From Pristiophorus japonicus (Eukaryota): DNA of 64,000 bases. The translations under genes were made by a program, and so were the position numbers. This document shows, piece after piece, positions 10,929 to 62,298 of the stretch. Below the pieces are notes generated by a model. That model did not search any database. It saw only the letters and a list, made by a program, of their open reading frames with translations, and was not told the DNA's origin. Each line of letters begins with the position of its first letter. Positions within the stretch are counted from its first letter, which is position 1. The stretch is taken from the NCBI RefSeq assembly GCF_044704955.1, contig NW_027252668.1, forward strand, positions 5,890,001 to 5,954,000, read 5' to 3'.

Positions 10929-13876
10929 ACTCTTTTGGAGTTTACCTGTTAAACATAAACATTAATCGGTGCCACCCGACCTGGATGACACACCAGATAT
11001 TTACAAGGACCATTTTTTTCTTTTTTGTGTTTTTTTTTCTGTTTTTTTTTGGGCACTAAAATCCAATTTTTTTTTTCCACCAGTGCCCCCTATAAAAGGG
11101 GAGGGGGACACTAAAAGCACCGGCAATTAAAACAAATTAAACTTTAAAACGTAAAATCAAATTAAAATTTGGTTGCCGGGCGTGATGATGCACTCCAGTC
11201 CCTCCGGTGCCTACCTCTCGCGGAAGGCCGCGAGCATACTGGTGGACACCGCGTGCTCCATCTCCAAGGACACCCTGGACCGGATGTAAGAGCGGAAGAG
11301 TGGCAGGCAGTCAGGTTGAACGACCCCCTCGACCGCCCGCTGCCTGGACCGGCTGATGGCACCCATGGCCGTGCCCAGGAGCAGTCCTACGAGGAGGCCC
11401 TCGGACCTACCCGCTCCCCTCCGCACAGGGTGTCCAAAGATCAGGAGAGTGGGACTGAAGTGCAGCCAGAATTTCAGGAGCAGCCCCTTCAAATAATGGA
11501 ACAGGGGCTGCAACCTCGTGCACTCAATAAAAACATGGAACACGGACTCCTCCAGACCGCAGAAATTGCAGGCGGCCTGGGAGTCCGTGAACCGGCTTAA
11601 AAATTTGTTGCACGGCACTGCTCCGTGCACCACCCTCCAGGCCAAGTCCCCGATGAATAGTGGGAGGACCACTGCGTAGAGTGCCCTCCATTGGGGACCC
11701 CCGCCTCCTCCGGATGGCAAGATGGTACGCCATGGCGTGTCCGGACGGCCGGCGAGGATGGCAAAGTTGAGGGTGTGCAGGAGCAGCCCGTACAGGAAAC
11801 CCCTCCGCGCGGAACTGAAAGGCACGGAGGGGATTTCCCCGAGGCGGCTCAAGTTGTGAGGCGCCGGCCCCCGAGGGAGGTTCCGGGGTTTGGCGCCGAT
11901 GAGGAATTCCGTCCGGACGGGGGTCAGTTCGGACGGGATCTCCCCACGTGCTTGAGCCTCCTCGATGCACCTAACGGAGTCAGGGCCCAGAGCTGTTTTT
12001 AGCGACTCGATGGCATCGGCCGCGTGGCGGACGTTGGCAGAGTTTAGGCGCCGCGCCAGCGTGTCTGGCGCCATCCAGCCCGCTCCTCCGCCATCGAGCA
12101 GGTCCCTGACCCTGGTCACCTCACCAGCCACAGCCCTCTCTTCCGACCGCCACATGAAACCTCGGCCGTGGAGGTACGGATTCCCGAGCAGCGGCTCCTG
12201 CAGGACGGCCGCCACTCCAGCCGGCGGAGAGCTGCGCTTAGTGGAGACTTTGTTCCAGACCCTGATGAGTTCCCTGTAAAAGACAGGCAGCTCCTGGAGG
12301 GCGGTCCTGGCACCCCCCAAGTTCACAAACAGGAGCTGCGTGTCATAATTGAGGTCGCGCTGCTGGCGGAAGAAATACCTCGCCAGAGCACACCACCTAG
12401 GAGGGGGCTCGACGTAAAGGTATCTCTGCAGGGTCTGAAGACGGAATGTCGCGAGCTGGGCGCTGACGCACACCAACGACTGACCGCCCTCCTCAAGCTG
12501 GAGACTCAGGACCGCGGCAGAGACCCAGTGCTTCCTGTTGTTCCAGAAGAAGTCCACCAGCTTCTTCTGTATCTTGGCGACAAACGCAGGGGGAGGGGTC
12601 AAAGTGACCAGCTGGTACCACAACATTGCGGCCACCAGCTGGTTTATGACTAGCGCTCGACCCCTGTAGGACAGTACTCGGAGCAGTCCTGTCCAGCGCC
12701 CTAGGCGAGCGGCGACCTTGGCCTCCAGCTCCTGCCAGTTCGCCGGCCAGGCTCCCTCGTCGGGGCTAAGGTAGACTCCCAGATAGAGGAGATGGGTCGT
12801 GCTCCAGGCAAAAGGCCTGAGCTCCTCCGGCAGGGAGTCCACCTGCCACTGACCCACCAGGAGTCCGGAACATTTCTCCCAGTTGATCCTGGCGGAGGAC
12901 GCGGCCGAGTAAATCTCCAGGCACTCACGCAGCCTCCGCAGGTCAGCGGGATCCTCTACCGCGAGGAGCACATCATCGGCATAAGCCGACAGGACGACCT
13001 CCACGCCCGGCCCTTGCAGAGCCAGTCCCGTCAACCTCGTCCGCAAGAGGCGCAGGAAAGGCTCCACGCAAACGGCGTATAACTGGCCGGACATGGGGCA
13101 TCCCTGGCGCACCCCTCTCCCAAAGCCAAGGGGCGCCGTCAAGGACCCGTTAACCTTAATCAGACACTCCGCGGTGGTGTACAAAAGTCAGATCCGGGTG
13201 ACGAAATGCGTCCCGAACCCGAAAGCGCGCAGAGTTCCAAGCAGATAGTCGTGATCCACCCTGTCGAACGCCTTCTCTTGGTCGAGAGATAGGAAGGCGA
13301 CCGACAGACCAGCCTCCTGGGAATGATGGATGAGGTCCCGGACCAGATGGATGTTGTCGTGGATTGTCCGGCCCGGGACCGTGTAGGACTGGTCGGGTGG
13401 ATCATGTGGTCCAGCACGGCACCAAGGCGAGCAGACATCGCCCTGGCGAAGATTTTGTAGTCCGTGCTGAGGAGGGAGACCGGGCGCCAGTTCTTAAGGA
13501 GGCGGAGATCACCCTTCTTAGGCAGCAGGACAATGACTGTCCTGCGCCAAGAGAGGGGCATCTCCCCGGTCGCCAGACTTTCCCCCAGGACCCGCGCGTA
13601 GTCGCTCCCCAGGATGTCCCAGAACGCCCTGTGGAACTCCACGGTCAGCCCGTCCAGCCCCGGGGTTTTTCCCCTCGAGAGCCGGTCGAGGGCACCGGTC
13701 AGCTCCGCCAGGCTTAGCGGAGCTTCCAAATTTTCACCGCCCTCCGGGCTGACTTTCGGCAGGTCCTCCCACAAAACTCTACACGCTTCCTCGCTGGACG
13801 GATCCGGAGAGAACAGAGCCCCGTAATATTCACGGGCCCTGTTGTTGACGCCCTCCGGATCTGAAACGAGAGAGCC
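10929..13876 (-). mobile_element. Tx1-clade LINE copy A, 5'-truncated (RT plus C-terminal CCHC)
   Basis: QGCPMSG, YADD, CNFCGLEESVFHVFIEC; flanked by GTCCTTGTGCATGAA at 10914-10928 and 13877-13891; frameshift near 13395; late stop at 11211. Confidence 0.93.
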
Positions 13877-13891
13877 GTCCTTGTGCATGAA

Positions 13892-16855
13892 ACTCTTTTG
13901 AGTTTACCTGCAAAACATAAAAACATTAAACGGTGCCACCCGACCTGGGTGACACTCCAGACATTTACAAGGCCCTTTTTTTTCCCCCCCTTTTTTTGTT
14001 TTTTTTTTGTGTTTTTCTTTTTTGGTTTTTTTTTTTGGGCACTAAATTCACAATTTTCCCCAGTGCCCCCTATAAAAGGGAAGGGGGACACTAAAAGCAC
14101 CGGCAATTAAAACAAATTAACTTTAAAACGTAAAATCAAATTAAAATTTGGTTGCCGGGCGTGATGATGCACTCCAGTCCCTCCGGTGCCCACCTCTCGT
14201 GGAAGGCCGCGAGCGTACCGGTGGACACCGCGTGCTCCATCTCCAAGGACACCCTGGACCGGATGTAAGAGCGGAAGAGAGGCAGGCAGTCAGGTTGAAC
14301 GACCCCCTCGACCGCCCGCTGCCTGGACCGGCTGATGGCACCCTTGGCCGTGCCCAGGAGCAGTCCTACGAGGAGGCCTTCGGACCTACCCGCTCCCCTC
14401 CGCACAGGGTGCCCAAAGATCAGGAGAGTGGGACTGAAGTGCAGCCAGAATTTCAGGAGCAGCCCCTTCAAATAATGGAACAGGGGCTGCAACCTTGTGC
14501 ACTCAATAAAAACATGGAACACGGACTCCTCCAGACCGCAGAAATTGCAGGCGGCCTGGGAGTCCGTGAACCGGCTTAAAAATTTGTTGCACGGCACTGC
14601 TCCGTGCACCACCCTCCAGGCCAAGTCCCCGATGAATAGTGGGAGGACCCCTGCGTAGAGTGCCCTCCATCGGGGACCCCCGCCTCCTCCGGACGGCAAG
14701 ATGGTACGCCATGGCGTGTCTGGACGGCCGGCGAGGATGGCAAAGTTGAGGGTGTGCAGGAGCAGCCCGTACAGGAAACCCCTCCGCGCGGAACTGAAAG
14801 GCACGGAGGGGATTTCACCGAGGCGGCTCAAGTTGTGAGGCGCCGGCCCCCGAGGGAGGTTCCGGGGTTTGGCGCCGATGAGGAATTCCGTCCGGACGGG
14901 GGTCAGTTCGGACGGGATCTCCCCACGTGCCTGAGCCTCCTCGATGCACCTAACGGATTCAGGGCCCAGAGCTGTTTTTAGCGACTCGATGGCATCGGCC
15001 GCGTGGCGGACGTTGGCAGAGTTTAGGCGCCGCGCCAGCGTGTCTGGCGCCATCCAGCCCGCTCCTCCGCCATCGAGCAGGTCCCTGACCCTGGTCACCT
15101 CACCAGCCACAGCCCTCTCTTCCGACCGCCACATGAAGCCTCGGCCGTGGAGGTACGGATTCCCGAGCAGCAGCTCCTGCAGGACGGCCGCCACTCCAGC
15201 CGGCGGAGAGCTGCGCTTGGTGGAGACTTTGTTCCAGACCCTGATGAGTTCCCTGTAAAAGACAGGCAGCTCCCGGAGGGCAGTCCTGGCACCCCCCAAG
15301 TTCACAAACAGGAGCTGCGTGTCATAATTGAGGTCGAGCTGCTGGCGGAAGAAATACCTCGCCAGAGCGCACCACCTAGGAGGGGGCTCGACGTAAAGGT
15401 ATCTCTGCAGGGTCTGAAGACGGAAAGTCGCGAGCTGGGCACTGACGCACACCAACGACTGACCGCCCTCCTCAAGCGGGAGACTCAAGACCGCGGCAGA
15501 GACCCAGTGCTTCCTGTTGTTCCAGAAGAAGTCCACCAGCTTCTTCTGTATCTTGGCGACAAACGCAGGGGGAGGGGTCAAAGTGACCAGCCGGTACCAC
15601 AGCATTGCGGCCACCAGCTGGTTTATGACTAGCGCTCGACCCCTGTAGGACAGCACTCGGAGCAGTCCTGTCCAGCGCCCTAGGCGAGCGGCGACCTTGG
15701 CCTCCAGCTCCTGCCAGTTCGCCGGCCAGGCTCCCTCGTCGGGGCTAAGGTAGACTCCCAGATAGAGGAGATGGGTCGTGCTCCAGGCAAAAGGCCTGAG
15801 CTCCTCCGGCAGGGAGTCCACCCGCCACTGACCCACCAGGAGTCCGGAACATTTCTCCCAGTTGATCCTGGCGGAGGACGCGGCCGAGTAAATCTCCTGG
15901 CACTCACGCATCCTCCGCAGGTCAGCGGGATCCTCTATCGCGAGGAGCACGTCATCGGCGTAAGCCGAGAGGACGACCTCCACGCCCGGCCCTTGCAGAG
16001 CCAGTCCCGTCAACCTCGTCCGCAAGAGGCGCAGGAAAGACTCCACGCAAACGGCGTATAACTGGCCGGACATGGGGCATCCCTGGCGCACCCCTCTCCT
16101 AAAGCGAAGGGGCGCCGTCAAGGACCCGTTAACCTTAATCAGACACTCCGCGGTGGTGTACAAAAGTCAGATCCGGGTGACGAAATGCGTCCCGAACCCG
16201 AAAGCGCGCAGAGTTCCAAGCAGATAGTCGTGATCCACCCTGTCGAACGCCTTCTCTTGGTCGAGGGATAGGAAGGCGACCGACAGACCAGCCTCCTGGG
16301 AATGATGGATGAGGTCCCGGACCAGATGGATGTTGTCGTGGATTTTCCGGCCCGGGACCGTGTAGGACTGGTCGGGTGGATCATGTGGTCCAGCACGGCA
16401 CCAAGGCGAGCAGACATCGCCCTGGCGAAGATTTTGTAGTCCGTGCTGAGGAGGGAGACCGGGCGCCAGTTCTTAAGGAGGCGGAGATCACCCTTCTTAG
16501 GCAGCAGGACAATGACTGCCCTGCGCCAAGAGAGGGGCATCTCCCCGGTCGCCAGACTTTCCCCCAGGACCCGCGCGTAGTCGCTCCCCAGGATGTCCGA
16601 GAACGCCCTGTGGAACTCCACGGTCAGCCCGTCCAGCCCCGGGGTTTTTCCCCTCGAGAGCCGGTCGAGGGCACCGGTCAGCTCCGCCAGGCTTAGCGGA
16701 GCTTCCAAATTTTCACCGCCCTCCGGGCTGACTTTCGGCAGGTCCTCCCACAAAACTCTACACGCTTCCTCGCTGGACGGATCCGGAGAGAACAGAGCCC
16801 CGTAATATTCACGGGCCCTGTTGTTGACGCCCTCCGGATCTGAAACGAGAGAGCC
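13892..16855 (-). mobile_element. Tx1-clade LINE copy B, 5'-truncated
   Basis: Same truncation point and frameshift as copy A; flanked by GTCCTTGTGCATGAA at 13877-13891 and 16856-16870. Confidence 0.93.
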
Positions 16856-17739
16856 GTCCTTGTGCATGAATCCCAAAAAGTTAGTTTGCAGGTGCAGCAG
16901 GTAATAAGGAAGGCGAATGGAATGTTGGCCTTCATTGCAGGAAGGATGGAATACAAAAGCAGGGAGGTCCTGCTGCAACTGTATAGGGTATTGGTGAGGC
17001 CGCACCTGGAGTACTGCATGCAGTTTTGGTCACCTGACTAAAGGAAGGATATACTAGCCTTGGAGAGGGTACAGAGACGATTCACTAGGCTGATTCTGGA
17101 GATGAGGGGGTTACCTTATGATGATAGATTGAGTAGACTGGGTCTTTACTCATTGGAGTTCAGAAGGATGAGGGGTGATCTTATAGAAACATTTAAAATA
17201 ATGAAAGGGATAGACAAGATAGAGGCAGAGGGGTTGTTTCCACTGGTCGGGGAGACGAGAACTAGGGGGCACAGCCTCAAAATACGGGGGAGCCAATTTC
17301 AAGCCGAGTTGAGAAGGAATTTCTTCTCCCAGAGGGTTGTGAATCTGTGGCATTTTCTGCCCAAGGAAGCAGTTGAGACTAGCTCATTGAATGTATTCAA
17401 ATCACAGATAGATAGATTTTTAACCAATAAGGGAATTAAGGGTTACGGGGAGCGGGCGGGTAAGTGGAGCTGAGTCCACGGCCAGATCAGCCATGATCTT
17501 TTTGAATGGCGGAGCAGGCTCGAGGGGCGAGATGGCCCACTCATGTTCCTAATTCTTATGTTCTTATATTATGTAAACACCCTGCACAGAATTATCCCAA
17601 ATTGAGCATTTCCAAGGGACAAGGCTCCCAGCTTTAATCATTCTGTGTCCTTTCCCCCCAGGCCCAGTTCCTTTGTTCAGATTCTGATAAAAGTAAATTG
17701 GGAAAGGTGCACTTTGATTTTTACAGGCTGAATTATTGC

Positions 17740-33500: not shown

Positions 33501-35135
33501 GGCATGCAGGTAAACATAGAAACATAGAAAATAGGTGCAGGAGTAGGCCATTCGGCCCTTCTAGCCTGCACCGCCATTCAATGAGTTCATGGCTGAACAT
33601 GCAACTTCAGTACCCCATTCCTGCTTTCTCACCATACCCCTTGATTCCCCTAGTAGTAACTCATCTAACTCCTTTTTGAATATATTTAGTGAATTGGCCT
33701 CAACAACGTTCTGTGGTAGAGAATTCCACAGCAGGCGGTTAAGAAAGCAAATGGCATGTTGGCCTTCATAGTGAGGGGATTTGAGTACAGGGGCAGGGAA
33801 GTGTTGCTACAGTTGTACAGGGCCTTGGTGAGGCCACACCTGGAGTATTGTGTACAGTTTTGGTCTCCTAACTTGAGGAAGGACATTCTTGCTATTGAGG
33901 GAGTGCAGCGAAGGTTCACCAGACTGATTCCCGGGATGGCGGGACGGACCTATCAAGAAAGACTGGATCAACTGGGCTTGTATTGTGAGTTCAGAAGAAT
34001 GAGAGGGGACCTCATAGAAACGTTTAAAATTCTGATGGGTTTAGACAGGTTAGATACAGGAAGAGCGTTCCCAATGTTGGGGAAGTCCAGAACCAGGGGA
34101 CACAGTCTAAAGATAAGGGGTAAGTCATTTAGGACTGAGATGAGGAGAAACTTCTTCACCCAGAGAGTGGTGAACCTGTGGAATTCTCTACCACAGAACG
34201 TTGTTGAGGCCAATTCACTAAATATATTCAAAAAGGAGTTAGATGAAGTCCTTACTACTAGGGGGATCAAGGGGTATGGCGAGAAAGCAGGAATGGGGTA
34301 CTGAAGTTGCATGTTCAGCCATGAACTCATTGAATGAAGGGCCGAATGGCCTACTCCTGCACCTATTTTCTGTGTTTTGTTTCTATGTAACCCGGAAGCC
34401 CAGTGAGATCAGACTGGTGTAACCAGGGGAGGATGGGCCCAGTAAGTTCAGACAGTGTGTAACCCAGGTAGGATGGGCCCAGTGAGATCAGACAGTGTGT
34501 AACCCGGGGGCCCAGTGAGATCAGACAGTGCGTAACCCAAGGAGGTTGGGCCCAGTGAGATCAGACAGTGTGTAACCCGGGGACCCTGTGAGATTAGATA
34601 GTGTGTAACCCGGGGGCCCAGTGAGATCAGTCAGTGTGTAACCTGGGGAGGATGGGCCCAGTGAGATCAGACAGTGTGTAACCCGGGGACCCGGTGAGAT
34701 CAGACAGTGTGTAACCCGGGGGCCCAGTGAGATCAGACAGTGTGTAACCCGGTGGCCCAGTGAGATCAGACAGTGTGTAACCCGGGTGCCCAGTCAGATC
34801 AGACAGTGTATAACCCGGGGTGTATGGGCTCAGTGAGATCAGACAGTGTGTAACCCGGGGGCCCAGTCAGATCAGACAGTGTGTAACCCGGGGAGGATGG
34901 GCCCAGTGAGATCAGACAGTGTGTAACCCGGGGACCCAGTGAGATCATGACAGTGTATAAGCCCGGGGACCAGTGAGATCAGACTGGTGTCACCCGGGGA
35001 GGATGGGCTCAGTGAGTTCAGACAGTGTGTAACCCGGGGAGGATGGGCCCAGTGAGATCAGACAGTGTGTAACCTGGGGACCCAGTGAGATCAGACAGTG
35101 TGTAACCCGGGGAGAATGGACTCAATGAGATCACA
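30510..35135 (+). repeat. 38-44-bp minisatellite (CAGTGAGATCAGACAGTGTGTAACCCGGGGGCC), split by a CR1 (30510-30893 and 34388-35135)
   Basis: Tandem units resume in register (cagtgtg | taacccgg) across the CR1 insertion. Confidence 0.92.
30894..34387 (+). mobile_element. 5'-truncated CR1 (same family as the full-length copy), multiply disrupted, with an inverted CR1 3' fragment at ~33513-33727
   Basis: ORF1 C-terminus (DGLHLG) and ORF2 pieces matching 55380-58680. Confidence 0.95.
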
Positions 35136-35989: not shown

Positions 35990-38157
35990 TGCAGTAGAGG
36001 TTGTATACATGGACTTTCAAAAGCCATTTGATAAAGTATCACATAATGGACTTGTTTGTAAATTGAAGCACATGGTGTTAAAGGGACAGTGGTAAATTGG
36101 ATATGTAATTAGCTGAGGGACAGGGGGCAGAGAGCAGTGGTGGACCGATGTTTCTCCAACTGCGGAGAAGTTTACATTGGGTCAACCAGGTGTCGCAATT
36201 GATGCCTTTGCTTTTCTGGTTATATTTTAAATGACCTGGTCTTCGCTATCGGGAGTGGACCTTCGAGGTTTGCTGAGGGCAAGAAAGTTGATTGTAGTAA
36301 ATGGTGAGCAGGATCGCAGCAGACTTTAGAAAGGCACAGACAGACTGGTGAACTGGACTGAAACATGGCAGATGCAATTTATTATTGCTCAGTGTGAAAT
36401 TATACACTTTGGGAAGTTCAACATGGAGAAGCAGTATAATGCAGACAGTACTATTTTGAGGGGATGTAAGAGCAGAGACCTGGGGGTAAATATCCACAAA
36501 TGTTTGAAGATGGAAGGGTAAGCTGATAAGACATTTAAGAGAGTGTATGGCATCTTTCACTTTGTAAATGGAGCACTAAACATAAAAACAAGGAGTTCAA
36601 TGCTAACCCATTACAAATCAGTGGTGAGGCTGGAGTATTGTGTACAATTCTGAGCAACACACATTAGGAAGAATGCCAAGGTGTTGGAGAGGGTACAGAG
36701 GACGTTTACCAGGATGATACCTGAGACTTCAATTATGTGGTGAGATTAGTCATGCTTGACCAATCTTCCAGAATTTTTTGAGGATGTAACTAATAGAGTG
36801 GATAAGGGAGAACCAGTGGATGTGGTGTATTTCGAATTTCAAAAGGCTTTTGACAAGGTCCTTCACAAGAGATGTGCAAAATTAAAGCACATGGTATTGG
36901 GGGTAATGTATTGACATGGATAGAGAACTGGTTGGCAGACAGGAAGCAAAGAGTAGGAACAAACGGGTTATTTTCAGAATGGCAGGCAGTGACTGGTGGG
37001 GTGCTGGAAGGTGCCATGCGGCTGTGGGGGTCGGGGTTTGTGGAAGGGGCGTGGCGGGGAGGTGCTGGGGTGGCTGATCAGCCATGATCTTGTTGAATGG
37101 TGGTGCAGGCTTGAAGGGCCGAATGGCCTACTTCCGCACCTATTTTCTATGTTTCTATGTTTCTATGCTGGGACCCCAGCTATTTACAATGTACATTCAT
37201 GATTTAGACAAAGGAATTGAATGTAATATCCCTACATTTGCAGATGACACTAAGCTGGGTGGCAGTGTGAGCTGTGAGGAGGAAGCTAAGAGGCTGCAGG
37301 GTGACTTGGACAGGTTTGGTGAGTGGGCAAATGCATGGCAGATGCAGTATAATGTGGATAAATGTGACGTTATCCACTTTGGTGGCAAAAACAGGAAGGC
37401 AGAATATTACCTGAATGGTGACAGATTAGGAAAAGGGGAGGTGCAACGAGACCTGGGTGTCATGGTACATCAGTCATTGAAGGTTGGCATGCAGGTACAG
37501 CAGGCGGTTAAGAAAGCAAATGGCATGTTGGCCTTCATAGCGAGGGGATTTGTGTACAGGGGCAGGGAAGTGTTGCTACAGTTGTACAGGGCCTTGGTGA
37601 GGCCACACCTGGAGTATTGTGTACAGTTTTGTTCTCCTAACTTGAGGAAGGACATTCTTGCTATTGAGGGAGTGCAGCGAAGGTTCACCAGACTGATTCC
37701 CGGGATGGCGGGACTGACCTATCAAGAAAGACTGGATCAACTGGGCTTGTATTCACTGGAGTTCAGAAGAATGAGAGGGGACCTCATAGAAACGTTTAAC
37801 ATTCTGATGGGTTTAGACAGGTTAGATGCAGGAAGAATGTTCCCAATGTTGGGGAAGTCCAGAACCAGGGGTCACAGTCTAAGGATAACGGGTAAGCCAT
37901 TTAGGACTGAGATGAGGAGAAACTTCTTCACCCAGAGAGTGGTGAACCTGTGGAATTCTCTACCACAGAAAGTTGTTGAGGCCAATTCACTAAATATATT
38001 CAAAAAGGAGTTAGATGAAGTCCTTACTACTAGGGGGATCAAGGGGTATGGCGAGAAAGCAGGAATGGGGTACTGAAGTTGCATGTTCAGCCAACATGGC
38101 GGTGCAGGCTCGAAGGGCTGAATGGCCTACTCCTGCACCGATTTTCTATGTTTCTAT
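35990..38157 (+). mobile_element. Stack of CR1 fragments (old copy ~35990-36750; younger pieces 36750-37000, 37065-37166, 37167-38157)
   Basis: Repeated RT motifs and two TTTCTATG tails. Confidence 0.85.
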
Positions 38158-39061
38158 ACCAATGACTGACAGGGACAGAGATAGATATATACTTCCAGAC
38201 CAGACACTGACGAGCACAGAGATAGATACATACTTCTATACCGGTCACTGACAGGCACACAGATAGATACATACTCCCAGACCAGAAAGTGACAGCACAG
38301 ATAGATGCAAACTCCCGTACCAGGGACTGACAGGCACACAGATAGATGCATACTTCCAGACCAATACATAAGAATTAGGAACAGGAGTAGGCCATCTAGC
38401 CCCTTGAGCATGCTCCGCCAATCAATAAGATCATGGCTGATCTGGCCGTGGACTCAGCTCCACTTACACGCCCGCTCCCTGTAACCCTTAATTCCCTTAT
38501 CGGTTAAAAATCTATCTATCTGTGACTTGAATACATTCAATGAGCTAGCCTCAACTGCTTCCTTGGGCAGAGAATTCCACAGATTCACAACCCTCTGGGA
38601 GAAGAAATTCCTTCTCAACTCGGTTTTAAATTGGATCCCCCGTATTTTGAGGCTGTGCCCCCAAGTTCTAGTCTCCCCGACCAGTGGAAACAACCTCTCC
38701 GCCTCTATCTTGTCTATCCCTTTCATTATTTTAAATGTTTCTATAAGATCACCCCTCATCCTTCTGAACTCCAACGAGTAAAGACCCAGTCTACTCAACC
38801 CATCATCATAAAGTAACCCCCTCATCTCCGGAATCAGCCTAGTGAATCGTCTCTGTACCCGCTCCAAAGCCAGTATATCCTTCCTTAAGTAAGGGGACCA
38901 AAACAGCACGCAGTACTCCAGGTGCGGCCTTACCAATACCTTATACAGTTGCAGCAGGACCTCCCTGCTTTTGTACTCCATCCCTCTTGCAATGAAGGCC
39001 AGCATTCCATTCGCCTTCCTGATTACCTGCAAACTAACTTTTTGGGATTCATGCACAAGGA

Positions 39062-39393
39062 TCCGCGCGTACATCCGCGCCAGGGTATCCTTGGAGATGG
39101 AGCACGCGGTGTCCACCGGTACGCTCGCGGCCTTCCGCGAGAGGTGGGCACCGGAGGGACTGGAGTGCATCGTCACGCCCGGCAACCAAATTTTAATTTG
39201 ATTTTATGTTTTTTAAGTTAATTTGTTTTAATTGCCGGTGCTTTTAGTGTCCCCCTCCCCTTTTATAGGGGGCACTTGGAAAAAAAAAAAAATTTGATTC
39301 TGTGCCCAAAAAAAAAATGGCATTGTAAATGTTGGTGTTTCCCCCAGATTGGGGGGCACGGTTTAATGTTTTCCTGTTAACTCCTAAAAGAGT
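39062..39393 (+). mobile_element. Tx1-clade LINE copy C, short 3' fragment
   Basis: RAYIRARVSLEMEH...GNQILI* plus 3' UTR; flanked by TTCATGCACAAGGA at 39048-39061 and 39394-39407. Confidence 0.93.
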
Positions 39394-39407
39394 TTCATGC
39401 ACAAGGA

Positions 39408-39777
39408 TCCACGCATACATCCGTGCCAGGGTGTCCTTGGAGATGGGCACGCAGTGTCCACCGGTACGCTCGCGGCCTTCCGCGAGAGGTGGGTACCGGA
39501 GGGACTGGAGTGCATCATCACGCCCGGCAATCAAATTTTAATTTGATTTTATGTTTTAAAGTTTAATTTGTTTTTATTGCCGGTGTTTTTTAGTGTCACC
39601 CTCCCCTTTTATAGGGGGCACTTGGAGGAAAAATAAGATTTTAGTGCCCAAAAAAATAATTTAAAAAAAATACACACACACAAGAAAAGGGCCTTGGAAA
39701 TGTTTGGTGCGCCCCCCCAGATCGGGGGGGCACCATTTTATGATTTAATGTTTTTTTTGTTTGCTCCCAAAAAGAGT
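39408..39777 (+). mobile_element. Tx1-clade LINE copy D, short 3' fragment
   Basis: Same 5' junction as copy C with a different 3' UTR variant; followed by TTCATGCACAAGGACC at 39778-39793. Confidence 0.93.
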
Positions 39778-40712
39778 TTCATGCACAAGGACCAATGGTG
39801 GAGCTTTGGAGGCGTGGCCTAATCAGTTAGAGCTGTGAGCAGTGGGAGAAGGAGCTGCTGCTTTTGCTCCTGTCTGGGACGCCTGGAGTGAGCCCTGAGA
39901 ACAGCCCAGGAATAGGAGGGAAGGGCTGGCTTACTGCAGTTCAACATCCGGAGCGAGAGGAGAGCAGAAAAATTAACCAACTTTATTTACTTCTACAAAG
40001 AGTTGGAGAGAGTGGGAAAAGAGCAACAACCTGTGTGGAAGGAGGGAGATTCTACAACATTCTACAGGTGGGTGTTGGTGCATTCCCCGAAAGACATTGT
40101 TGTATCGGTGGGGGGAGGAAAGAAGACTTTTCGAGGGCCGGAACATCGCGGGAGGTGTGTGTGTGCGGAAGTGTGTGTGGGGGTCTTGCTTACAGCTAGG
40201 CCCCACACACCACTAAAGCACCCCTCCCCCATTGCCTAGCCTGGGATAGCTGGAGCTACCTGGCTGAAAACTATTAATTACCCTATTAAACATCATTGGG
40301 AGTGTGTGCCTGGGTGGCTCCAGCTACCCCAGGTGAAGACATCTTCTCCCCCCACCCGAAGACCTTTCTTAAAAGAATGTGTTTTTTTTTTGGATCTGGG
40401 GAGTGCACCCCAAGAAACACCCACCCATTGCTGTGAGGGGAGACCTGCCCTCGCAGCCTCCCTCTTTCCCACACCCCCTCACTCGATCTCTCTCTGTCTC
40501 TCCCCTCTCTCTCTGAGAGCCCTTTCCTCCTAATTTAAAAAAAAAACAATTAAGACAACTGAGCAGAGGGAGCAAGGCCCCTCCCCATTCGTTCACCAGG
40601 GGAGAGGTGTGCCCCATTAAGAGCTCCCTCTGCTCAAAAAACCAACGAGGCCAATAAAGACCATTAAGGCCTGTGACTTTGGGGTGGGTGTAGCCCTTAA
40701 AGGGACCCCGTG

Positions 40713-42813
40713 ATGGCGACCCCATCCACGCCGGTGGCAGGGCCAGCAAGGACATATGCGCAGGCGGCATCCACATCCATGGCGCCTCCTGCGCCACCTG
40801 CTGCCCTGCCACCATTCAGACTGATGACAAAGAAACACGGGGTCAAGAGCTACACTCAACCCACAATGAGCATTGAGGTGTGCATGCGGGCGATGGCCGG
40901 GGTAGTCGGCCCCTCGGCCATTGTTGCAGCCTCCAAGATGTCAGGGAAGGCTGTGTTCTTCCTGGGGTCGGAGCGGGCGGTGTCCCTGGCCCTTGAAAAG
41001 GGGCTCATGGTGGGCGGGACGTTCCTGCCGGTGGACCCTGTCGAGGCCACCGCGCAGAGGGTCATCATTTCAAACGTCCCGCCCTTTGTTCCCGCTGAGC
41101 TCCTTCTCCCTCACCTACACCAACTGGGGGAGGTAAGGTCGGGGATCTACCCCATACCGCTCGGCCTCAGGGAGAGCAGCCTGCGCCATGTGTTCTCCTT
41201 CCGCCGCCAGCTCTTTGTCCGGCTGGCACGGGAGGAGACGACGGAGGGCAATTTCAATGTGGTGCACGAGGGGACTGCCTACCGCGACTTCTGGACGTCG
41301 GAAGGCGTGCGGTGCCATGCCTGTAGGGAGGTGGGGCACGTTTGCAAGAACTGACCCGCCTCCAAGGCCGCCAAACCACCGAAGGCGGCTAAGGCTGGCG
41401 CCGCCGCCACCCCTCCCCCTAGTAGCGTCCGCGTGCCGCGTGCCGTGAGCCGTAGGTGCGCGGGCATCGTCGGGGGCCTTTGTTTTCACGGCCTCTGGCG
41501 GGGGGGAGGGTGAGCGTCCGATCGGAAAGAAGGTGCGGAGGAATGCGAAACATCTCGAGGCGGGTCCCCTCAGTGCGCCAGAAAGTTTGACCACCGCGCT
41601 CAGCCCAACCCAGTCATCGGCGAGCGCGGGGTGCCCTGAGCCCGTGCCCGAGCCCTTGACCAATACCGCAGAGGGGCTCGGGCGCGGGCAAGATAAGAAA
41701 AAGGGGGGGGCGGAGCGGGAGGCCTCGGCAGACACGGGGGTCTCCCTGCCTCCGCGCACCCCCAGGAACAAAAGGAGGCGCCACTCCAATGAGGCGGAGG
41801 GGGAACAACATCCTTCCGCGGAGGAGTCGGTGCCTGCCGCTTGTCCCGTGTCCCCCACCGGCGCCCCCAAACCACGCCGTAGGCGCGAGGAATCTGTCCC
41901 CGGGGAGGGTGAGGCAGTCGAGGCTGCCCAGCCGCTGCCTCCCGGGGATGGCATGAAAGATCTGCCTGGCGTGGGGGGCGTGGGGCCAGCGGAGGAATGC
42001 GTTGCTGCCGGGTCGAGCATCCCGGGGACTGAGGCGGACGGAGCCGAAAAGGTCGTACCTGAGACCGTCCGGCTATTATCCAACTTCCCCCGGGTGTCGT
42101 TGGGCCCAGAAGAAACGGCAATGAATGATTTTAACGAGTCTGTACACGCTGGGCCGGGGGGTGGCGGCGGGGTGGGGGAAGAACAACAACCCTCGCCCCC
42201 TACTTTGGAGCTGCGGTACTTGGTGGACCTGGAACATTACTTTGACTAGGTCTCTCCGTGTTCCCCGGTTACTGGGGCGGAGGAGGAACACCTTCCGCTG
42301 TCGCTTCCCGATCCAGCACCAAATTTAAAAGAGCCCAGTGGGGACTCCTCTGCCGATGATCCTGGGGGTGCGATCGGGGCGGAGCCAGGGCCAGATGGAG
42401 CGGCCGGGCCGTTTGCCGTACCTCATGCGGTCGACGGGCCGGCTGCTAGCGGCGACCTCCCGGAGGAGGACGGGGACTCGGTGGAGGACGCGGGTGAAGA
42501 TCTCGAGTCCATCGCCAGTGAGGCGGTGGATCTCCTCGTGCCCGCCGCTGAGTCCCCCCTCATTCCCGTAGAGGAACTCCGGGACTTTTTGGTCCAGAGC
42601 CAGGGTCGCCGCAACCGAACCCATCTGGCCCGGGAAAGATGGTCCTAGCCGGGGCTGCTCATCGCTTCCGTCCGCGTCACCGCTAAAACCATGGCCGCGG
42701 GCGGGCCCTTATCAAAGGCGCAAGGCCTTGAGCTGCGCTGGCTCAAAAAGTTCCTCGCTGGGCTGCTGAAGGAGTGGAGGTCAACAAACGACTCCACTCC
42801 CCCCCCACAATAG
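40713..42813 (+). pseudogene. Tx1 ORF1 (Gag-like nucleic-acid-binding protein with CCHC knuckle), disrupted
   Basis: VIISNVPPFV motif; CHACREVGHVCKN with the last Cys changed to TGA at 41352; further stops in the low-complexity C-half; end coordinate approximate. Confidence 0.75.
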
Positions 42814-42843
42814 GTTAGGTAGAGGTTGCACTATGCTCTTGTC

Positions 42844-45800
42844 ATGAAGATAACCATAGCCAGCCTCAACATCAACGGCGGCAGAGAGGCACGCCGTAGA
42901 TTTAACAATTTTTCGCTCCTGTGGGAGGGGAAATATGCGGTATGCTTCCTGCAAGAAACCCACACCGTTCCGGGAGACGAAGCCACGTGGCTCCTGGAAT
43001 GGCAAGTAGAGGTCCGCATGAGCCACCTCACCGCCACTTCTAGTGGGGTGGCCATCTTGCTGGCCTCGCATTTTCAGCCGGAGATCTTGGGGGTCGAGGA
43101 GCCCGTGCCAGGCCGCTTTCTGCACGTAACGGTTCACCTGGGGGACATGCCGCTCCATCTCGTGAACGTATACGCCCCTCAGCCCGGCCCGCAGCAAATG
43201 CGCTTCTTCGAAGAGGTGTCCGCTCTTCTTGGCTCCGTCGACGTCGGCCTCGGGGGGGATTTTAACTGCACCCTCGAGGCGAGGGACCGCTCCGGTTCCC
43301 CGCAGAGCATGACGGCGATGGGGAAGTTGAGAGACCTGGTCGGGTCCTTCGAGTTGGTGGACGTCTGGCGAAATCTCCATCCCGACTCCAGCGCCTTTAC
43401 TTGGGTGAGGCCTGGAGTAGGATGGTCCAGAGTCGACCGCCTTTACGTGTCTCGGGCGTACGTTTCCTGCGTCCCGACGGCCTCCTTGCGGCCGATGCCG
43501 TGTTCGGACCACCACCTGGTGTGGGCGGAACTCGCTTCGCTCCGCGGGAGGACGGGGTCCGCGTACTGGCATTTTAACAACCGGCTGCTGGAGGACGTGC
43601 GGTTCCAGGATTCGTTCCGTCGATTCTGGGCCGACTGGAGAAGGAAGCAGGGGGGCTTCCCCTCCTTGAGGCTATGGTGGGACGTGGGGAAGGCTCACGT
43701 CCGCGTCTTCTGTCAAGAGTACGCGAGGGGGTCAACCAAGAGGCGGGCGGCCAGGGTCGGGCGCCTAGAAAAAGAGGTGCTCGACCTGGAGTCCCGTCTC
43801 GGTCAAGTCGTCGGGGACCCGGCCCTGCGGATGGTGTACGAAGTGAAGAAGGCCGCGCTGAAGGACCTGCAGCTCGTCGGGTCCCGAGGCGCGTTCGTGA
43901 GGTCGCGGATCCGGTTCCTGCGGGATCTGGACCGCGGCTCCCCCTTCTTCTACTCGCTGGAAATAAAACAGAGTGTCCGTAAGCAGCTCTTGACGCTGCT
44001 GGCCGACGACGGCTCTCTCGTCTCGGATCCGGAGGGCGTCAACAAAAGGGCCCGTGAATATTACGGGGCCCTGTTCTCTCCGGAGCTGTCCAGCGAGGAA
44101 GCGCGTAGAGTTTTGTGGGAGGACTTGCCGAAGGTCAGCCCGGAGGGCACCGAAAATCTGGAAGCTCCGCTAAGCCTGGCGGAGCTGACCGGCGACCTCG
44201 ACCGGCTCTCGAGGGGAAAAGCCCCGGGGCTGGACGGGCTGACCGTGGAGATCCACAGGGCGTTCTGGGACATCCTGGGGGGCGACTACGCGCGAATCCT
44301 GGGGGAAAGTCTGGCGACCGGGCAGATGCCCCTCTCTTGGCGCAGGGCAGTCATCGTCCTGCTGCCTAAGAAGGGCGATCTCCGCCTCCTTAAGAACTGG
44401 CACCCGGGCTCACTCCTCAGCATGGACTACAAAATCTTCGCCAGGGCGATGTCTGCTCGCCTTGGTGCCGTGCTGGACCACATGATCCACCCCGACCAGT
44501 CCTACACGGTCCCGGGCCGGACAATCCACGATAACATCCATCTGGTCCGGGACCTCATCCATTATTCCCAGGAGGCTGGTCTGTCGGTCGCCTTCCTATC
44601 CCTCGACCAAGCGAAGGCGTTCGACAGGGTGGATCACGACTATCTGCTCTGAACTCTGCGCGCTTTCGGGTTCGGGACGCATTTCGTCGCCCGGATCCGA
44701 CTATTGTACGCCGCCGCGGAGTGTCTGATTAAGGTTAACGGGTCCTTGACGGCGCCCCTTCGCTTTGGGAGAGGGATGCGCCAGGGATGCCCCATGTCCA
44801 GCCAGTTATATGCCGTCTGCGTGGAGCCTTTCCTGCGCCTCCTGCGGACGAGGTTGACGGGACTGGCTCTGCAAGGGCCGGGCGTGGAGGTCGTCCTCTC
44901 GGCTTACGCCGATGACGTGCTCCTCGCGGTAGAGAATCCCGCTGACCTGCGGAGGATGCGTGAGTGCCAGGAGGTTTACTCGGCCGCATCCTCCGCCAGA
45001 ATCAACTGGGAAAAATGTTCCGGACTCCTGATGGGTTGGTGGCGGGTGGACTCCCTGCCGGAGGAGCTCAGGCCTTTTGCTTGCAGCACGACCCATCTCC
45101 TCTATCTGGGAGTCGACCTTAGCCCCGACGAGGAAGTCTGGCCGGCGAACTGGCAGGAGCTGGAGGCCAAGGTCACCGCTCGCCTAGGGCGCTGGACAGG
45201 ACTGCTCCGAGTGCTGTCCTACAGGGGTCGAGCGCTAGTCATAAACCAGCTGGTGGTCCCCATGTTGTGGTACCGGCTGGTCACTTTGACCCCTCCCCCT
45301 GCGTTTGTCGCCAAGATACAGAAGAAGCTGGTGGACTTCTTCTGGAACAACAGGAAGCACTGGGTCTCTGGGGCGGTGTTGAAGCTCCCGCTTGGGGAGG
45401 GCGGTCAATCGTTGGTGTGCGTCAGCGCCCAACTCGCGACTTTCCATCTTCAGACCCTGCAGAGATACCTTTACATCGAGCCCCCTCCTAGGTGGCGTGC
45501 TCTGGCGACGTATTTCTTCCGCCAGCAGCACGGCCTCAACTACGACACGCAGCTCCTGTTTGTGAGTGTGGGGGGCGTCAGGACCGCCCTCCGGGAGCTG
45601 CCTGTCTTTTACAAGGAACTCATCAGGGTCTGGAACAAAGTCTCCACCAAGCGCAGCTCTCCACCGGCTGGAGTGGCGGCCGTCTTGCAGGAGCCGCTGC
45701 TCGGGAATCCGTACCTCCACGACCAAGGTTTTAGGTGGCGGTTGGACGAGAGGGCTGTGGCTGGTGAGGTGACCAGGGTCACGGACCTGCTCGATGGTGG

Positions 45801-46731
45801 AGGAGCGGGCTGGATGGCGCCAGACACGCTGGCGCGGTGCCTAAATTCTGCCAACGTCCGTCACGCGGCCGATGCCATCGAGTCGCTAAAAAGAGCTCTG
45901 GGCCCCGACTCCATTAGGTGCATCGAGGAGGCTCAAGCACGTGGGGAGATCCCATCCGAACTGACCCACGTCCGGACGGAATTCCTCATCGGCGCCAAAC
46001 CCCGGAACCTCCCTCTGGGGCCAGCGCCTCACAACTTGAGCCGCCTCGGGGAAATCCCCTCCGTGCCTTTCATTTCCGCGCGGAGGGGTTTCCTGTACGG
46101 GCTGCTCCTGCACACTCTGAAATTTGCCATCCTTGCCTGCCGTCCGGACACGCCATGGCGTACCATCTTGCCGTCCGGAGGAGGCGGGGGTCCCCGATGG
46201 AGGGCACTCTACACGGGAGTCCTCCCAGTATTTATCAGGGACTTGGCCTGGAGGGTGGTGCACGGAGCAGTCCCGTGCAATAAATTTTTAAGCCGGTTCA
46301 CGGGCTCCCAGGCCGCCTGCAATTTCTGCGGTCTGGAAGAGTCCATGTTCCATGTTTTTATGGAATGCACGAGGTTGCAGCCCCTGTTTGATTATTTAAA
46401 GGGGCTGCTCCTGAAATTCTGGCTGCACTTCAGTCCCACACTCCTGATCTTTGGACACCCTGTGCAGAGGGGAGCGGGTAGGTCCGAGGGCCTCCTTGTA
46501 GGACTGCTCCTGCGCACGGCCAAGGGTGCCATCAGCCGGTCCAGGCAGCGGGCGGTCGAGGGGGTCGTTCTACCTGACTGCCTGCCTCCCTTCCGCGCGT
46601 ACATCCACGCCAGGGTGTCCTTGGAGATGGAGCACGCGGTGTCCACCGGTACGCTCGCGGCCTTCCGCGAGAGGTGGGCACCGGAGGGACTGGAGTGCAT
46701 CGTCATGCCCGGCAACCAAATTTTAAATTGA
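42844..46731 (+). pseudogene. Tx1 ORF2 (APE endonuclease, RT, CCHC) with a single in-frame stop
   Basis: SLNING, LQETH, GGDFN, SDH (APE); QGCP, YADD (RT); ORFs 42826 and 44704 share a frame and are separated only by TGA at 44650-44652 (GGA in copies A/B). Confidence 0.93.
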
Positions 46732-47509
46732 TTTTATGTTTTAAAGTTTAATTTGTTTTAATTGCTGGTGTTTTTTAGTGTCCCCCTCCCCTTTTATAGG
46801 GGGCACTTAGGAAAAATATTATTTAAGTGCCAAAAAAAAAAAAAAAATGGGCGTTGTAAATGTTTGGTGCATCCCCCAGATCGGGGGGCCACGGTTTAAT
46901 GTTTTTGTTTGCTCCAAAAGAGTTTCATGCACATGGAACCCCAGGTCCCTCTGCATCTCAGCATGTTGTAATTTCTCCCCATTCGAATAATATTCCCTTT
47001 TACTGTTTTTTTCCCCAAGGTGGATGACCTCACACTTTCCGACATTGTATTTCATCTGCCAAACCTTAGCCCATTCGCTTAACCTATCTAAATCTCTTTA
47101 CAGCCAATCTGTGTCCTCTCCACAACCCGCTTTCCCACTAATCTTTGTGTCATCTGCAAATTTTGTTGCACAACACTCTGTCCCCTCTTCCAGGTCATCT
47201 ATGTATATTGTAAACAGTTGTGGTCCCAGCACCGATGCCTGTGGCACACCATTAACCACCGATTTCCAACCCGAAAAGGACCCATTTATCCCGACTCTCT
47301 GCTTTCTGTTCGCCAGACAATTCTCTATCCATGCTAATACATTTCCTCTGACTCCGCGTACCTCTATCTTCTGCAGTAACCTTTTGTGTGGCACCTTATC
47401 AAATGCCTTTTGGAAATCTAAATACACCACATCCATCGGTACACCTCTATCCACCATGCTCGTTATTTCCTCAAAGAATTCCAGTAAATTAGAAAATTCC
47501 AGAAAAAAC

Positions 47510-49700
47510 AGAAACTGACAGCACAGAGATAGATACATACTCCCATACCAGAGTCTGACTTGCACAGAGTTAGATACGTACTTCCATACCAGACAGTGAC
47601 AGGCACACACATATATATATATATATATATACAGCCATACCAGAGATTGACTGGGACAGAGATAGATACATACTTCTATACCGGACACTGACAGGCACAC
47701 AGATAGATACATACACCCATATCAGCGATTGACTGGGCCAGAAATAGATAAATACTCTCATAACAGAGACTGATGGGCACACAGATACTTACTCCCATAA
47801 TAGACACTGACAGCACAGAGATAGATACATACTCCCACAACCGGCCCAGAGATACTCCCATACCAGACAGTGACAGGCACACACATATATACATACTCCC
47901 ACACCAGAGATTGACAGCACAGAGATAGTTACATAATTGTATACCGGACACTGACGGGCACAGAGATAGATACATACTCCCATACCAGAGACTGACTTGC
48001 ACACAGATAGATACATACTCCCAGACCAGAGACTGACCGCACAGAGATAGATACATACTCCCACACCCGGCACAGAGATACTCCCATACCAGACAGTGAC
48101 AGGCACACACATATATACATACACCCATACCAGCTACTGACAAGCAGAAAGATAGATGCAAACTTCTATACCGACACTGACATGCACACAGATAGATACA
48201 TAATCCCATACCCGAGATTGACAGGCACAGAGATAGATACATACTCCCATACATGAGACTGACAGGCACAGAGATAGATACATACTCCCACACCAGAGAT
48301 TGACAGCACAGAGGTAGTTACATAATTGTATACCGGACACTGACGGGCACAGAGATAGATACATACTCCCATACCAGAGACTGACTTGTACACAGATAGA
48401 TACATACTCGCAATCCAGAGACTGACGGGCACAGAGTTAGATACAAAGTCCCATACCCGACACTGACAGGCACACAGATAGATACACACTCCCACACCAG
48501 AGACTGACAGCACAGAGATAGATACATACTCCCACACCCGGCACAGAGATAGATACATACTCCCATTTCAGAGACTGACAGCACACAGATTGATACATGC
48601 TCCCATACCCGAGACTGACAGGCACAGAGATAGATACATACTCCCATGCTAGAGACTGACTTGCACACAGATAGATACATACTCGCAGACCAGAGACTGA
48701 CGGGCACAGAGTTAGATACAAAGTCCCATACCCGACACTGACAGGCACACAGATAGATACATGCTCCCATACCAGAAACTGACAAGCACACAGATAGATA
48801 CACACTCCCACACCAGAGACTGACAGCACAGAGATAGATACATACTCCCACACCCGGCACAGAGATAGATACATACTCCCATTCCAGAGACTGACAGCAC
48901 ACAGATTGATACATGCTCCCATACCCGAGACTGACGGGCACAGAGATAGATACATACTTCCATACCAGACAGTGACAGGCACAGAAAGACACATATTCCC
49001 ACACCAGAGACTGACAGGCACAGAGATAGATACATACTTCCATACCAGAGACTGACAGGCACAGATAGATACATACTCAAATACCCGACACCGACAGGCA
49101 CAGACTGATACATTCTCCCATACCAGAGACTGACGGGCAGAGGTGGATACATACGCCCATACCAGCGTCTGACAGGTACAGACATAAATAGGTGCTCCCA
49201 TACCAGAGATTGACTGGCACAGATAGATACATACTCCCATACCAGAGACTGACAGGCACAGAGATAGATACATACTTCCATACCAGAGACTGACAGGCAC
49301 AGATATAGATACATTCTCCCTCACATGAGACTGACAGGCACACAGATAGATACTTACTCCCATATCAGAGACTGACAGGCACAGAGATAGATACATACTT
49401 CCATACCAGAGACTGACAGGCACAGAGATAGATATATACTTCCATTCCAAGCACTGATAGGCACAGAGTTGGATACATACTCCATACCAGAGAGTGGCAG
49501 AGACAGAGATACATAGTCCCATACCAGAGGGTGACAGAACAGAAATAGATACTTACTCTCATACCAGAGACTGACAGGCACAGATAGATACATACTCCTA
49601 CACCAGAGACTGACAGGCACAGTGATAGATACATACTCCATACCAAAGAGTAGCAGAGACAGAGATAGATACATACTCCCATACTAGAGACTGACAGATT
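47510..49700. repeat. ~41-bp satellite (GACAGGCACAGAGATAGATACATACTCCCATACCAGAGACT)
   Basis: Dozens of tandem units with higher-order sub-blocks; short related array at 38157-38365. Confidence 0.93.
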
Positions 49701-49974
49701 CAAAGGAAAACCATCTCTGAATTAGGTAGAAACTAACAGTTATTGGATAAGACGCACACTAATAAATCAGAAGATGACAAGTACAGAATAAAATCCAGAT
49801 TCCCATAACAGACACTGCCAGATACAGAGTAAAGTCCACACGCACATACCAGGGACCGATAGATACAGAGCGACGCTCACGTGCCAGGGACTGAGAGAAA
49901 CAGACTAAAACCTACCATTGCAAAGCTGAAAATGACAGATACAGAGTACTCCCCTCTATTCCATATCAATAAAA

Positions 49975-50526: not shown

Positions 50527-50569
50527 ACGCATCAAGCGGGAAAGCATCGCTTTCTGTTTTTACACGTGC

Positions 50570-51100
50570 CTGTCAATCCCCCACTGACACACTGTACCAG
50601 ACAGTGACAGATAGTGTCTTTACTATACTCCCAGTCAATCCCACACTGACACACTGTACCAGACAGTGACAGATACAGTGTCTTTACTATACTCCCTGTC
50701 AATCCCACACTGACACACTGTACCAGAGAATGACAGATAGTGTCTTTACTATACTCCCAGTCAATCCCACACTGACACACTGTACCAGAGAGTGATAGAT
50801 AGTGTCTTTACTATACTCCCAGTCAATCCCACACTGACACACTGTACCAGACAGTGACAGATACAGTGTCTTTACTATACTCCCAGTCAATCCCACACTG
50901 ACACACTGTTCCAGAGAGTGACAGATACAGTGTCTTTACTATACTCCCAGTCAATCCGACACTGACACACTGTTCCAGAGAGTGACAGATACAGTGTCTT
51001 TACTATACTCCCAGTCAATCCCACACTGACACACTGTACCAGACAGTGACAGATACAGTATCTATCCTACACTGACCAGTGAATCCCACATTAGCACACA
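50570..51100. repeat. 62-64-bp minisatellite, ~8 units
   Basis: CAATCCCACACTGACACACTGTACCAGACAGTGACAGATACAGTGTCTTTACTATACTCCCAGT repeated. Confidence 0.93.
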
Positions 51101-53866: not shown

Positions 53867-54061
53867 GACTGCCCGCTGTCCTGAGAGATCAAACCCCAAA
53901 CACAACGGCTCTTTTAAGAGCCACCCACAACCTCTCTGAAAGAGCTGCACAAACGCATCTCCCTTTACACTCTGTTTACTGTAATTATGTCCTGAACAAG
54001 TATATTTGAGAACTTTTACACTTCCAGCTGTAGATTTAGTTTTGAATTCTCATATCAGTTT

Positions 54062-61129: not shown

Positions 61130-62298
61130 TGTACCTGCTCGATGGCGGAGGAGCGGGCTGGATGGCGCCAGACACGCTGGAGCGGCGCCTAAATTCGGCC
61201 GACGTCCGCCGCGCCGCCGATGCCATCAAGTCGCTAACAATAGCACTGGGCCCTGACTCCGTTAGGTGTGTCGAGGAGGCTCAAGCACGTGGGGAGATCC
61301 CGTCCGAACTGATCCCTGTCCGGACGGAATTCCTCATCGGCGCCAAACATCGGAACCTCCCTCGGGAGCCGGCGCCTCACAACTTGAGCCGCCTCAGGGA
61401 AATCCCCTCCGTGCCTTTCAGTTTTGCACGGAGGGCTTTCCTGTACAGTCTGCTCCTGCACACTCTCAACTTTGCCATCCTCGTCTGCCGTCCGGACACG
61501 CCATGGCATACCATCTTGCCGTCCGGAGGAGGCGGGGGTCCCCGATGGAGTGCACTCTACGCAGGAGTCCTCCCATTATTTATCGGGAACTTGGCCTGGA
61601 GGGTGGTGCACGGAGCAGTCCTGTGCAATAAATGTTTAATTCGGTTCACGGGCTCCCAGGCCGCCTACAATTTCTGCGGTCTGGAAGAGTCCGTGTTCCA
61701 TGTTTTTATTGAATACACGAGGTTGCAGCCCCTGTTCCAATATTTAAAGGGGCTGCTCCTGAAATTCTGGCTGCACTTCAATCCCACACTCCTGATCTTT
61801 GGGCACCCTGTGCGGAGGGGAGTGGGTAGGTCCGAGGGCCTCCTTGTAGGACTGCTCCTGGGCACGGCCAAGGGGGCCATCAGCCGGTCCAGGCAGCGGG
61901 CGGTCGAGGGGTTCGTTCAGCCTGACTGCCTGCCTCTCTTCCGCTCTTACATCTGCGCCAGGGTGTCCCTGGAGATGGAGCACGCGGTATCCACCGGTAC
62001 GCTCGCAGCCTTCCGTGAGAGTTGGGCGCCGGAGGGACTGGAGTGCATCATCACCGCCGGCAACCAAATTTTAAATTGATTTTACGTTTTAAAGTTTAAT
62101 TTGTTTTAATTGCCGGTGTTTTTAGTGTCCCCCTCCCCTTTTATAGGGGGCACTTGGATAAAAACATTTGATTTTAGTGCCCAAAAAAAAATACAAAATA
62201 AACAAAAAAAAACACCAAGAAAAGGGCCTTGAAAATGTTTGCTGTGTCCCCCAGATCGGGGGGCACGATTTAATGTTTAGTTTTTCTCCCAAAAGAGT
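61130..62298 (+). mobile_element. Tx1-clade LINE copy F, 5'-truncated, in the H4-H1 spacer
   Basis: ORF2 C-terminus plus 3' UTR; GAGTTGTGAGGCGG duplicated at 61116-61129 and 62295-62308; empty site at 6657-6670. Confidence 0.94.

Follow-up and report, generated by a model that had tools for sequence, protein, structure and literature searches.

Head-to-tail stacks of a Tx1-clade retrotransposon in Pristiophorus japonicus share 5' breakpoints, probably through completion of new copies on the resident

Transposable elements that return to a preferred target can form head-to-tail dimers with a target duplication at the junction, and such dimers can seed satellites (McGurk and Barbash, 10.1101/158386). 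For the Tx1 clade of retrotransposons without long terminal repeats (non-LTR), the targets given are DNA transposons, LTR elements, microsatellites and small RNA genes; tandem copies of SINEU-3, which is mobilised by the crocodilian element Tx1-Mar, sandwich the target duplication (Kojima, 2015, PMC4494074). In Drosophila R1 arrays the duplication is 14 bp long and insertion occurs into the duplication at the resident's 5' end; copies lacking a 5' duplication are not stacked upon, and one class of upstream-deletion junction recurs (Stage and Eickbush, 2009, PMC2718515). Here we describe stacks of a Tx1-clade long interspersed nuclear element (LINE) in Pristiophorus japonicus. They lie in a stretch of 64,000 nucleotides (assembly GCF_044704955.1, contig NW_027252668.1, positions 5,890,001 to 5,954,000, forward strand), which we call the window, and at many other loci of the same genome; in them, we argue, the resident copy probably serves to complete the cDNA of the newcomer.

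Like Xenopus Tx1 and its clade, the element has an open reading frame (ORF2) with APE endonuclease and reverse transcriptase (RT) domains, and a preferred site in another transposon. Unlike the Tx1-clade elements of PMC4494074, its target is a LINE (CR1 ORF2, in antisense), and shared truncation points are not described in the available part of that paper. As in R1 arrays, new copies appear to enter the duplication at the 5' end of the resident. Unlike R1, however, the element has a Tx1-like ORF2 and its target is an RT-coding host sequence rather than 28S ribosomal DNA (rDNA); neither inheritance of truncation points nor block copying is reported in the portion of PMC2718515 at hand. Stacking by target reuse is known, and a resident that sets the 5' end of the newcomer is apparently unreported. 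A literature search, with Repbase and supplements outside its reach, turned up neither routine inheritance of breakpoints in tandem LINEs nor a CR1-targeting Tx1. The respective roles of host and element in forming the 5' junction have been called a critical remaining question for R2, where "anneal" junctions pair with upstream rDNA and 11 bp are enough (PMC11331408). In L1 templated insertions, which are rare (22 instances), homologous DNA close by is the pairing partner of the 3' end of the cDNA, and a local stretch can be duplicated (10.1101/2024.08.27.596794). Compared with L1 and R2, the partner here would be the element's own downstream resident, used repeatedly, at most of the stacks whose resident is truncated. 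Pairing that resembles synthesis-dependent strand annealing is also said to have been invoked for chimeric L1 copies by Gilbert et al. in 2005.

The stack around which this work is built has the order target-C-target-D-target-E-target, as an earlier note on this DNA had read it, with TTCATGCACAAGGA at 39048, 39394 and 39778 and a mutated copy at 46924, which has one mismatch to TTCATGCACAAGGA plus an extra A. Its features are these, in window positions; the target copies are motif matches.

38366..39047, minus strand: host CR1-like LINE, C-terminal part of ORF2 after the insertion site, reading SQKVSLQV...
39048..39061, plus strand: host-side copy of the 14-bp target duplication; the likely nick site, judging from the polarity data
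39062..39393, plus strand: unit C, a 5'-truncated Tx1 copy of 332 bp, starting at E position 6801
39394..39407, plus strand: C/D target duplication
39408..39777, plus strand: unit D, 370 bp, with the 5' breakpoint of C, a different 3' untranslated region (UTR) and 86% identity to C
39778..39791, plus strand: D/E target duplication
39792..46923, plus strand: unit E, a full-length, decayed Tx1-clade LINE of 7,132 bp, 3' end AAAAGAGT
42844..46731, plus strand: ORF2 of E (APE-type endonuclease, RT, zf-RVT), with an in-frame TGA at 44650-44652
46924..46937, plus strand: terminal target copy TTCATGCACATGGA
46940..47490, minus strand: host CR1-like LINE, RT part before the insertion site, ending ...DLGFHVHE

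The element appears to be a Tx1-clade non-LTR retrotransposon inserted antisense in CR1 ORF2 with a 14-bp duplication. Over 99% of its length, the ORF2 product of an intact relative shares 49% identity with the Xenopus Tx1 149-kDa protein, its best named full-length match, and the N-terminal half of the ORF2 of E is 50% identical to Xenopus Tx1 ORF2; the match to human L1 ORF2p is far weaker. Pfam recognised Exo_endo_phos and RVT_1 in ORF2, with zf-RVT below the cutoff, as was a weak zf-CCHC match (E=0.005) in a 699-aa ORF1. In unit E, ORF1 begins at 40713 and is interrupted. The host, a LINE that codes for RT and runs the opposite way, is broken at VHE|SQK. We take it, tentatively, to be CR1 from its VHE-SQK...KANGMLAFI motif; a Pfam scan of the host fragments gave no match. 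Because 25 of 30 element 3' ends, picked blind to their flank, run into the 14-mer, the element ranks as a target-specific Tx1 family under the definition of Kojima (2015, PMC4494074), in which more than 20% of flanks are of one type. We read it as a young, target-preferring Tx1-clade LINE.

What the earlier note had overlooked is that neighbouring units begin at the same point: C and D at position 6801 of E, and the two units of a second stack, A and B, at position 4217; a sixth copy, F, had also been missed. We examined this coincidence in 51 loci selected on one criterion, a truncated unit next to an internal junction on its left (locus samples beyond the window all come from contig C1, and genome-wide counts from the one 5.9-Gb assembly). 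Two of an initial 53, L137 and L158, were dropped as single copies with a mutated host flank. By curation, adjacent units had an identical breakpoint at 29 loci and short units recurred as blocks at 6 more (35 in all); 14 loci showed neither and 2 were chimeric. An automated tally, which missed several host junctions, gave 24 of 51 as a lower bound. Between loci, only 8 of 3,828 pairs of breakpoints coincided (0.2%). At 19 of 45 scored loci even the leftmost unit carried the shared breakpoint. In the dimers of McGurk and Barbash, distinct 5' truncations mark independent insertion, whereas here independent insertions mostly have the same truncation (29/51).

The units that share a start nevertheless appear mostly to descend from independent templates rather than to be duplicates of one another. 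At least three subfamily-level differences separate 26 of 35 adjacent aligned-start pairs with at least 800 aligned columns (18 full-length pairs included); only 4 of these long pairs are without subfamily-level ORF differences, and two of the four differ in their 3' UTR. Most truncated neighbours are no more alike than copies at other loci. Their sequences do not suggest satellite-type unequal exchange, under which neighbours are near-identical over their whole length.

Some pairs show a switch point. At L046 (units 1 and 2), L155 and L159, adjacent units are near-identical through the ORF and have different 3' UTRs. At L127 an identical 15-bp insert with its target is found four times, each time before a long unit, and the 3' UTR is different in all four of these units; L148 and L174 are similar. 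Short units recur near-exactly at L125, L164, L168 and L181, where most of the full-length units between them differ. Everything from the host junction up to the shared start is repeated exactly, aberrant junctions (L087 and L113) included, and junctions are inherited without a CR1 motif in the off-target stacks L138 (six units) and L211.

The entry point of new units is likely the 5' junction on the host side and not the GAGT end, because right-hand units are older, the older 3' type lies to the right, and the 14-nt duplication at L113 and L052 is composed of the resident's own aberrant left junction. Rare variants were richer in the right unit in 12 of 13 same-start pairs of a first set (183 vs 118); in a second set of 31 pairs the right unit was richer in 13, the left in 4, and 14 were tied (129 vs 64). 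The right-hand unit is accordingly the older in 25 of 30 untied same-start pairs. The older 3' type or subfamily, its age taken from 3 scored copies only, was on the right in all seven mixed pairs. Over all pairs of the first set, polarity was 22 vs 9. The composites at L164 and L165 are misaligned, and the sums for pairs with a shorter left unit were left unused; for a longer left unit the count is 5 vs 0 without L164. In the window stack, C has 1 rare variant and D 6 (139 columns), and C is likely the youngest of the three units.

Occupied sites are also hit again more often than chance would have it, as the earlier note had foreseen. Among 61 independent terminal-junction loci, 15 held at least two units (11% expected under a Poisson distribution, p=0.003) and 7 at least three (0.9% expected, p=1e-6). 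Unit numbers were tallied by hand, and 9 of 61 terminal matches had been collapsed as segmental duplicates ahead of counting. Such duplicates lie in the first 3.3 Mb of C1 and carry the same insertions (L002/6/9/15, L003/4/5/8/14 and L001/7/10). Close to the start of C1, inserts of 47 bp and 256 bp recur; considered as a CR1 lineage with a Tx1 passenger, they proved to be segmental duplicates with about 99% identity across 3 kb. L025, considered as bearing a partial second unit, contains a 117-bp duplication that spans the junction, and we counted it as a single copy.

The exact 3' junction occurs 14,790 times in the genome, against 0 for a control pattern, and 7,008 of these junctions run into host sequence. 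Exact empty sites of the GGGA class number 26,556, and this class is therefore about 21% occupied. An internal junction precedes a full-length copy 3,946 times, an exact host junction only 415 times. In the window alone, the loose motif count at 3 mismatches is not above chance (13 vs 7.9 expected); what lies above chance is the seven exact window copies at element junctions and host sites, together with the genome-wide 14,790 vs 0. Similar CR1 sites at 9372, 20933 and 51787 (not 51788, as first noted) are indeed empty. Both occupied hosts do read VHE|SQK, the subfamily to which they had been assigned, but so does the empty site at 51787, in a diverged DNA context; those at 9372 and 20933 read VHE-TQK. 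Stratification by host class, which had been advised, shows the GGGA (SQK) class strongly preferred: of 102 occupied left junctions sampled, a single one has the TTTTTGTGT (TQK) context. Although 10,497 empty sites belong to the TTTTGTGT host class, it supplied one of the 102 sampled junctions (hosts of all ages pooled); bases before the nick therefore matter.

Re-hits rose with the length of the resident: 1 of 19 for residents below 70 bp, 2 of 17 for 70-1,000 bp, 7 of 19 for longer truncated copies and 10 of 13 for full-length ones (p=7e-6 for the trend), with 0 of 16 where the left target was destroyed. The last 20 loci fetched gave 3 of 5 full-length, 0 of 4 truncated, 1 of 5 tiny and 0 of 6 destroyed. 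This table is small and hand-made, takes the rightmost unit as the first resident and is conditional on leftward growth. It leaves out the chimeric residents L052 and L063 and the ambiguous tiny ones L083 and L104, and takes in five loci with an exact junction and a mutated flank.

We propose that the nascent cDNA probably pairs with the resident copy and is then completed on it, back to the nick. First the endonuclease would nick GGGA^TTCATG on the bottom strand, leaving that context in place to the left of every insertion, and reverse transcription would begin on an RNA from elsewhere in the genome. [quoted passage not shown] Without capture, a de novo junction would form, with the top strand cut at +14. 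Capture of this kind would explain why breakpoints are shared and 3' ends differ, why switch points vary and why blocks are copied. In the least certain step, capture would rescue stalled events and thereby turn occupied sites into hotspots. Extension might be the work of RT or of host repair, with the +14 cut before it or not. A minority of units, fully identical to one another, may owe their origin to unequal exchange or to misassembly.

A variant 11-nt upstream flank, TCCTTCTGT(C/G)A, fits the same scheme. It occurs at 393 places in the genome (for example L252-L266), once as an empty site; all 15 of the variant-flank sites fetched are occupied, and the host beyond the flank is standard. 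The flank could be RNA-borne, written over the target when cDNA and flank anneal; an extremely hot variant of the target is a possible alternative.

Several observations weigh against this proposal or limit it. Inheritance was lacking at 16 of the 51 loci, and about ten pairs join a truncated right unit to a longer left one; capture is therefore not obligatory. Complete identity between neighbours also occurs (at L046 in units 6-8, at L155 and L176 in parts, and in one pair at L168). Polarity is weak in full-length pairs and at times reversed (L071, 86 vs 66; L096, 71 vs 51); between D and E it is the left unit that is richer in rare variants (6 vs 3), and pairs inside one locus are not independent. 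L017, L135, L217 and L130 leave room for insertion at an internal site or on the right. The re-hit table fits homology capture and the opening of chromatin by a full-length promoter alike, and cannot separate the two. As to rescue, junction mode is not the main determinant of efficiency in R2 (PMC11331408).

Events at the level of DNA might give a similar picture: independent insertions would come first, and unequal exchange or nick-induced gene conversion across the 14-bp target would later bring breakpoints into line and raise the number of units. Exchange should work well on long arrays of 7.2-kb units, the identical neighbours just listed would be its expected product, and McGurk and Barbash (10.1101/158386) invoke unequal exchange for array growth. 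Homologous unequal exchange is, however, unable to copy the leftmost junction, which shares its breakpoint at 19 loci as given above, and at L127 the mini-insert was copied each time while four 3' UTRs stayed different. Gene conversion would need a second event at more than half of the loci, with 14 bp of homology on one side, and we consider the whole scheme unlikely. That the tandem copies are assembly artefacts is barely credible. Units 7 and 8 of L046 are identical over 6,934 columns, and contigs from four public runs were too fragmented to span a stack; yet the units of the window diverge by 2-15% from one another and most neighbours differ at subfamily-level sites, differences that an assembler would not invent.

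Two other explanations place the cause in the RNA or in the 3' end. Read-through transcripts of stacks, with upstream flank or downstream units, might retrotranspose as composites and so make both the stacks and their shared junctions. The composites at L166 and L138, with an internal CR1 target motif at non-CR1 sites, suggest that such transcripts exist; a few breakpoints do recur between loci, and the variant flank and the CACCTGGG junction class described below look RNA-borne. Breakpoints are nonetheless locus-specific, as the 8 coincidences show, and a composite RNA would give a new, unrelated truncation at the leftmost unit. With copying in cis the 3' UTRs of neighbours would agree, and most do not; a cis read-through copy of the resident is on that ground ruled out, and we think read-through very improbable as a general source. 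The earlier note had supposed that the duplication, together with the element's GAGT end, recreates a usable site on the 3' side, where independent insertions pile up. This would account for the over-dispersed occupancy, and L130, L217 and L017 are compatible with insertion at an internal or right-hand site. It leaves the shared 5' breakpoints of neighbours without an account, since independent insertions would not share them, and the age polarity, the order of subfamilies and the aberrant duplications place insertions host-side, with right-hand units the older. Among full-length singles with the left target destroyed and the right one intact, 0 of 6 were re-hit, against 10 of 13 with the left intact (p=0.003; conditional on left growth). 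Regeneration on the 3' side is thus largely refuted, and has a very slim chance of being the mechanism. The target at the host-side junction would simply be retained, not recreated by GAGT, which would set a T beside the nick, as in the disfavoured GTGT class.

If completion on the resident is correct, shared truncation points in tandem LINEs are no proof of DNA-level duplication, and satellites derived from transposable elements can grow by retrotransposition itself. The stacks likely record thousands of natural 5'-junction events with a readable template, at switch points from a few bases to several kilobases. Both ORFs are open in 16 of 44 full-length Tx1 copies examined, which makes the model testable with a pre-occupied target; repeated insertion at an occupied site also matters for site-specific insertion tools. 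A wider picture, a little short of even odds, is that resident copies act as landing pads, where capture would set the 5' end and raise the rate of insertion several-fold, even off target without the motif, giving self-extending arrays at thousands of loci in a Tx1 lineage that targets another LINE.

The second stack reads target-A-target-B-target on the minus strand, as previously noted, with motifs at 16857, 13878 and 10915.

16857..16870, minus strand: host-side target copy of the A-B stack, with further copies at 13878-13891 and 10915-10928
13892..16856, minus strand: unit A, starting at E position 4217
10929..13877, minus strand: unit B, with the same start as A
61133..62298, plus strand: unit F, an off-target truncated copy outside CR1, with duplication TGTGAGGCGG

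A and B have 10 rare variants in common, including a 1-bp deletion, all within the first ~705 bp, and their subfamily-level differences begin at offset 921. B has 26 variants of its own and A 11; B is the probable resident of this stack. The TGTGAGGCGG duplication at F is 10 bp long, or 14 bp if the GAGT microhomology is counted.

Several other junctions and arrays of this element were seen. Full-length copies at L043, L052, L094, L095 and L107 have one upstream deletion junction, CACCTGGG followed by the element, which resembles the -9 class of R1. Inserts of 11-13 bp, the element's last bases, with a full 14-bp duplication are common (L064, L065, L089, L093, L103, L116, L122), suggesting very early arrest of RT. 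At L017 and L135 two mini-inserts are linked by TTCA(T) only, and may reflect template jumps of RT on RNAs that reach a few bases into the target. Copies of tRNA-Asp, tRNA-Val, tRNA-Trp and 5S rRNA are found within the target site, joined to the 3' end of Tx1; these look like template-switch chimeras and are possible precursors of short interspersed nuclear elements.

RNA-gene fusions: L052:9585-9656, L172:1776-1848, L179:8555-8627, L063:9559-9678, L156:1366-1474

Long full-length arrays, candidates for nascent satellites, occur at G000:C1:144999158-145049615 and at L046 (nine units, 60 kb).

The window also holds an exon with a C2H2 zinc-finger array (22306-23700; 464 aa, periodicity 84 bp) and a second young LINE family, at 55573-58581 and also at 31088-34388 and 37161-38157, with an open 1,002-aa endonuclease-RT frame; its copies are 93-96% identical to one another and ~70% to the host. 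Minisatellites lie at 6754-7386, 47456-49856, 50569-51055 and 54052-54475, with periods of 24, 39-41, 62-64 and 46-62 bp.

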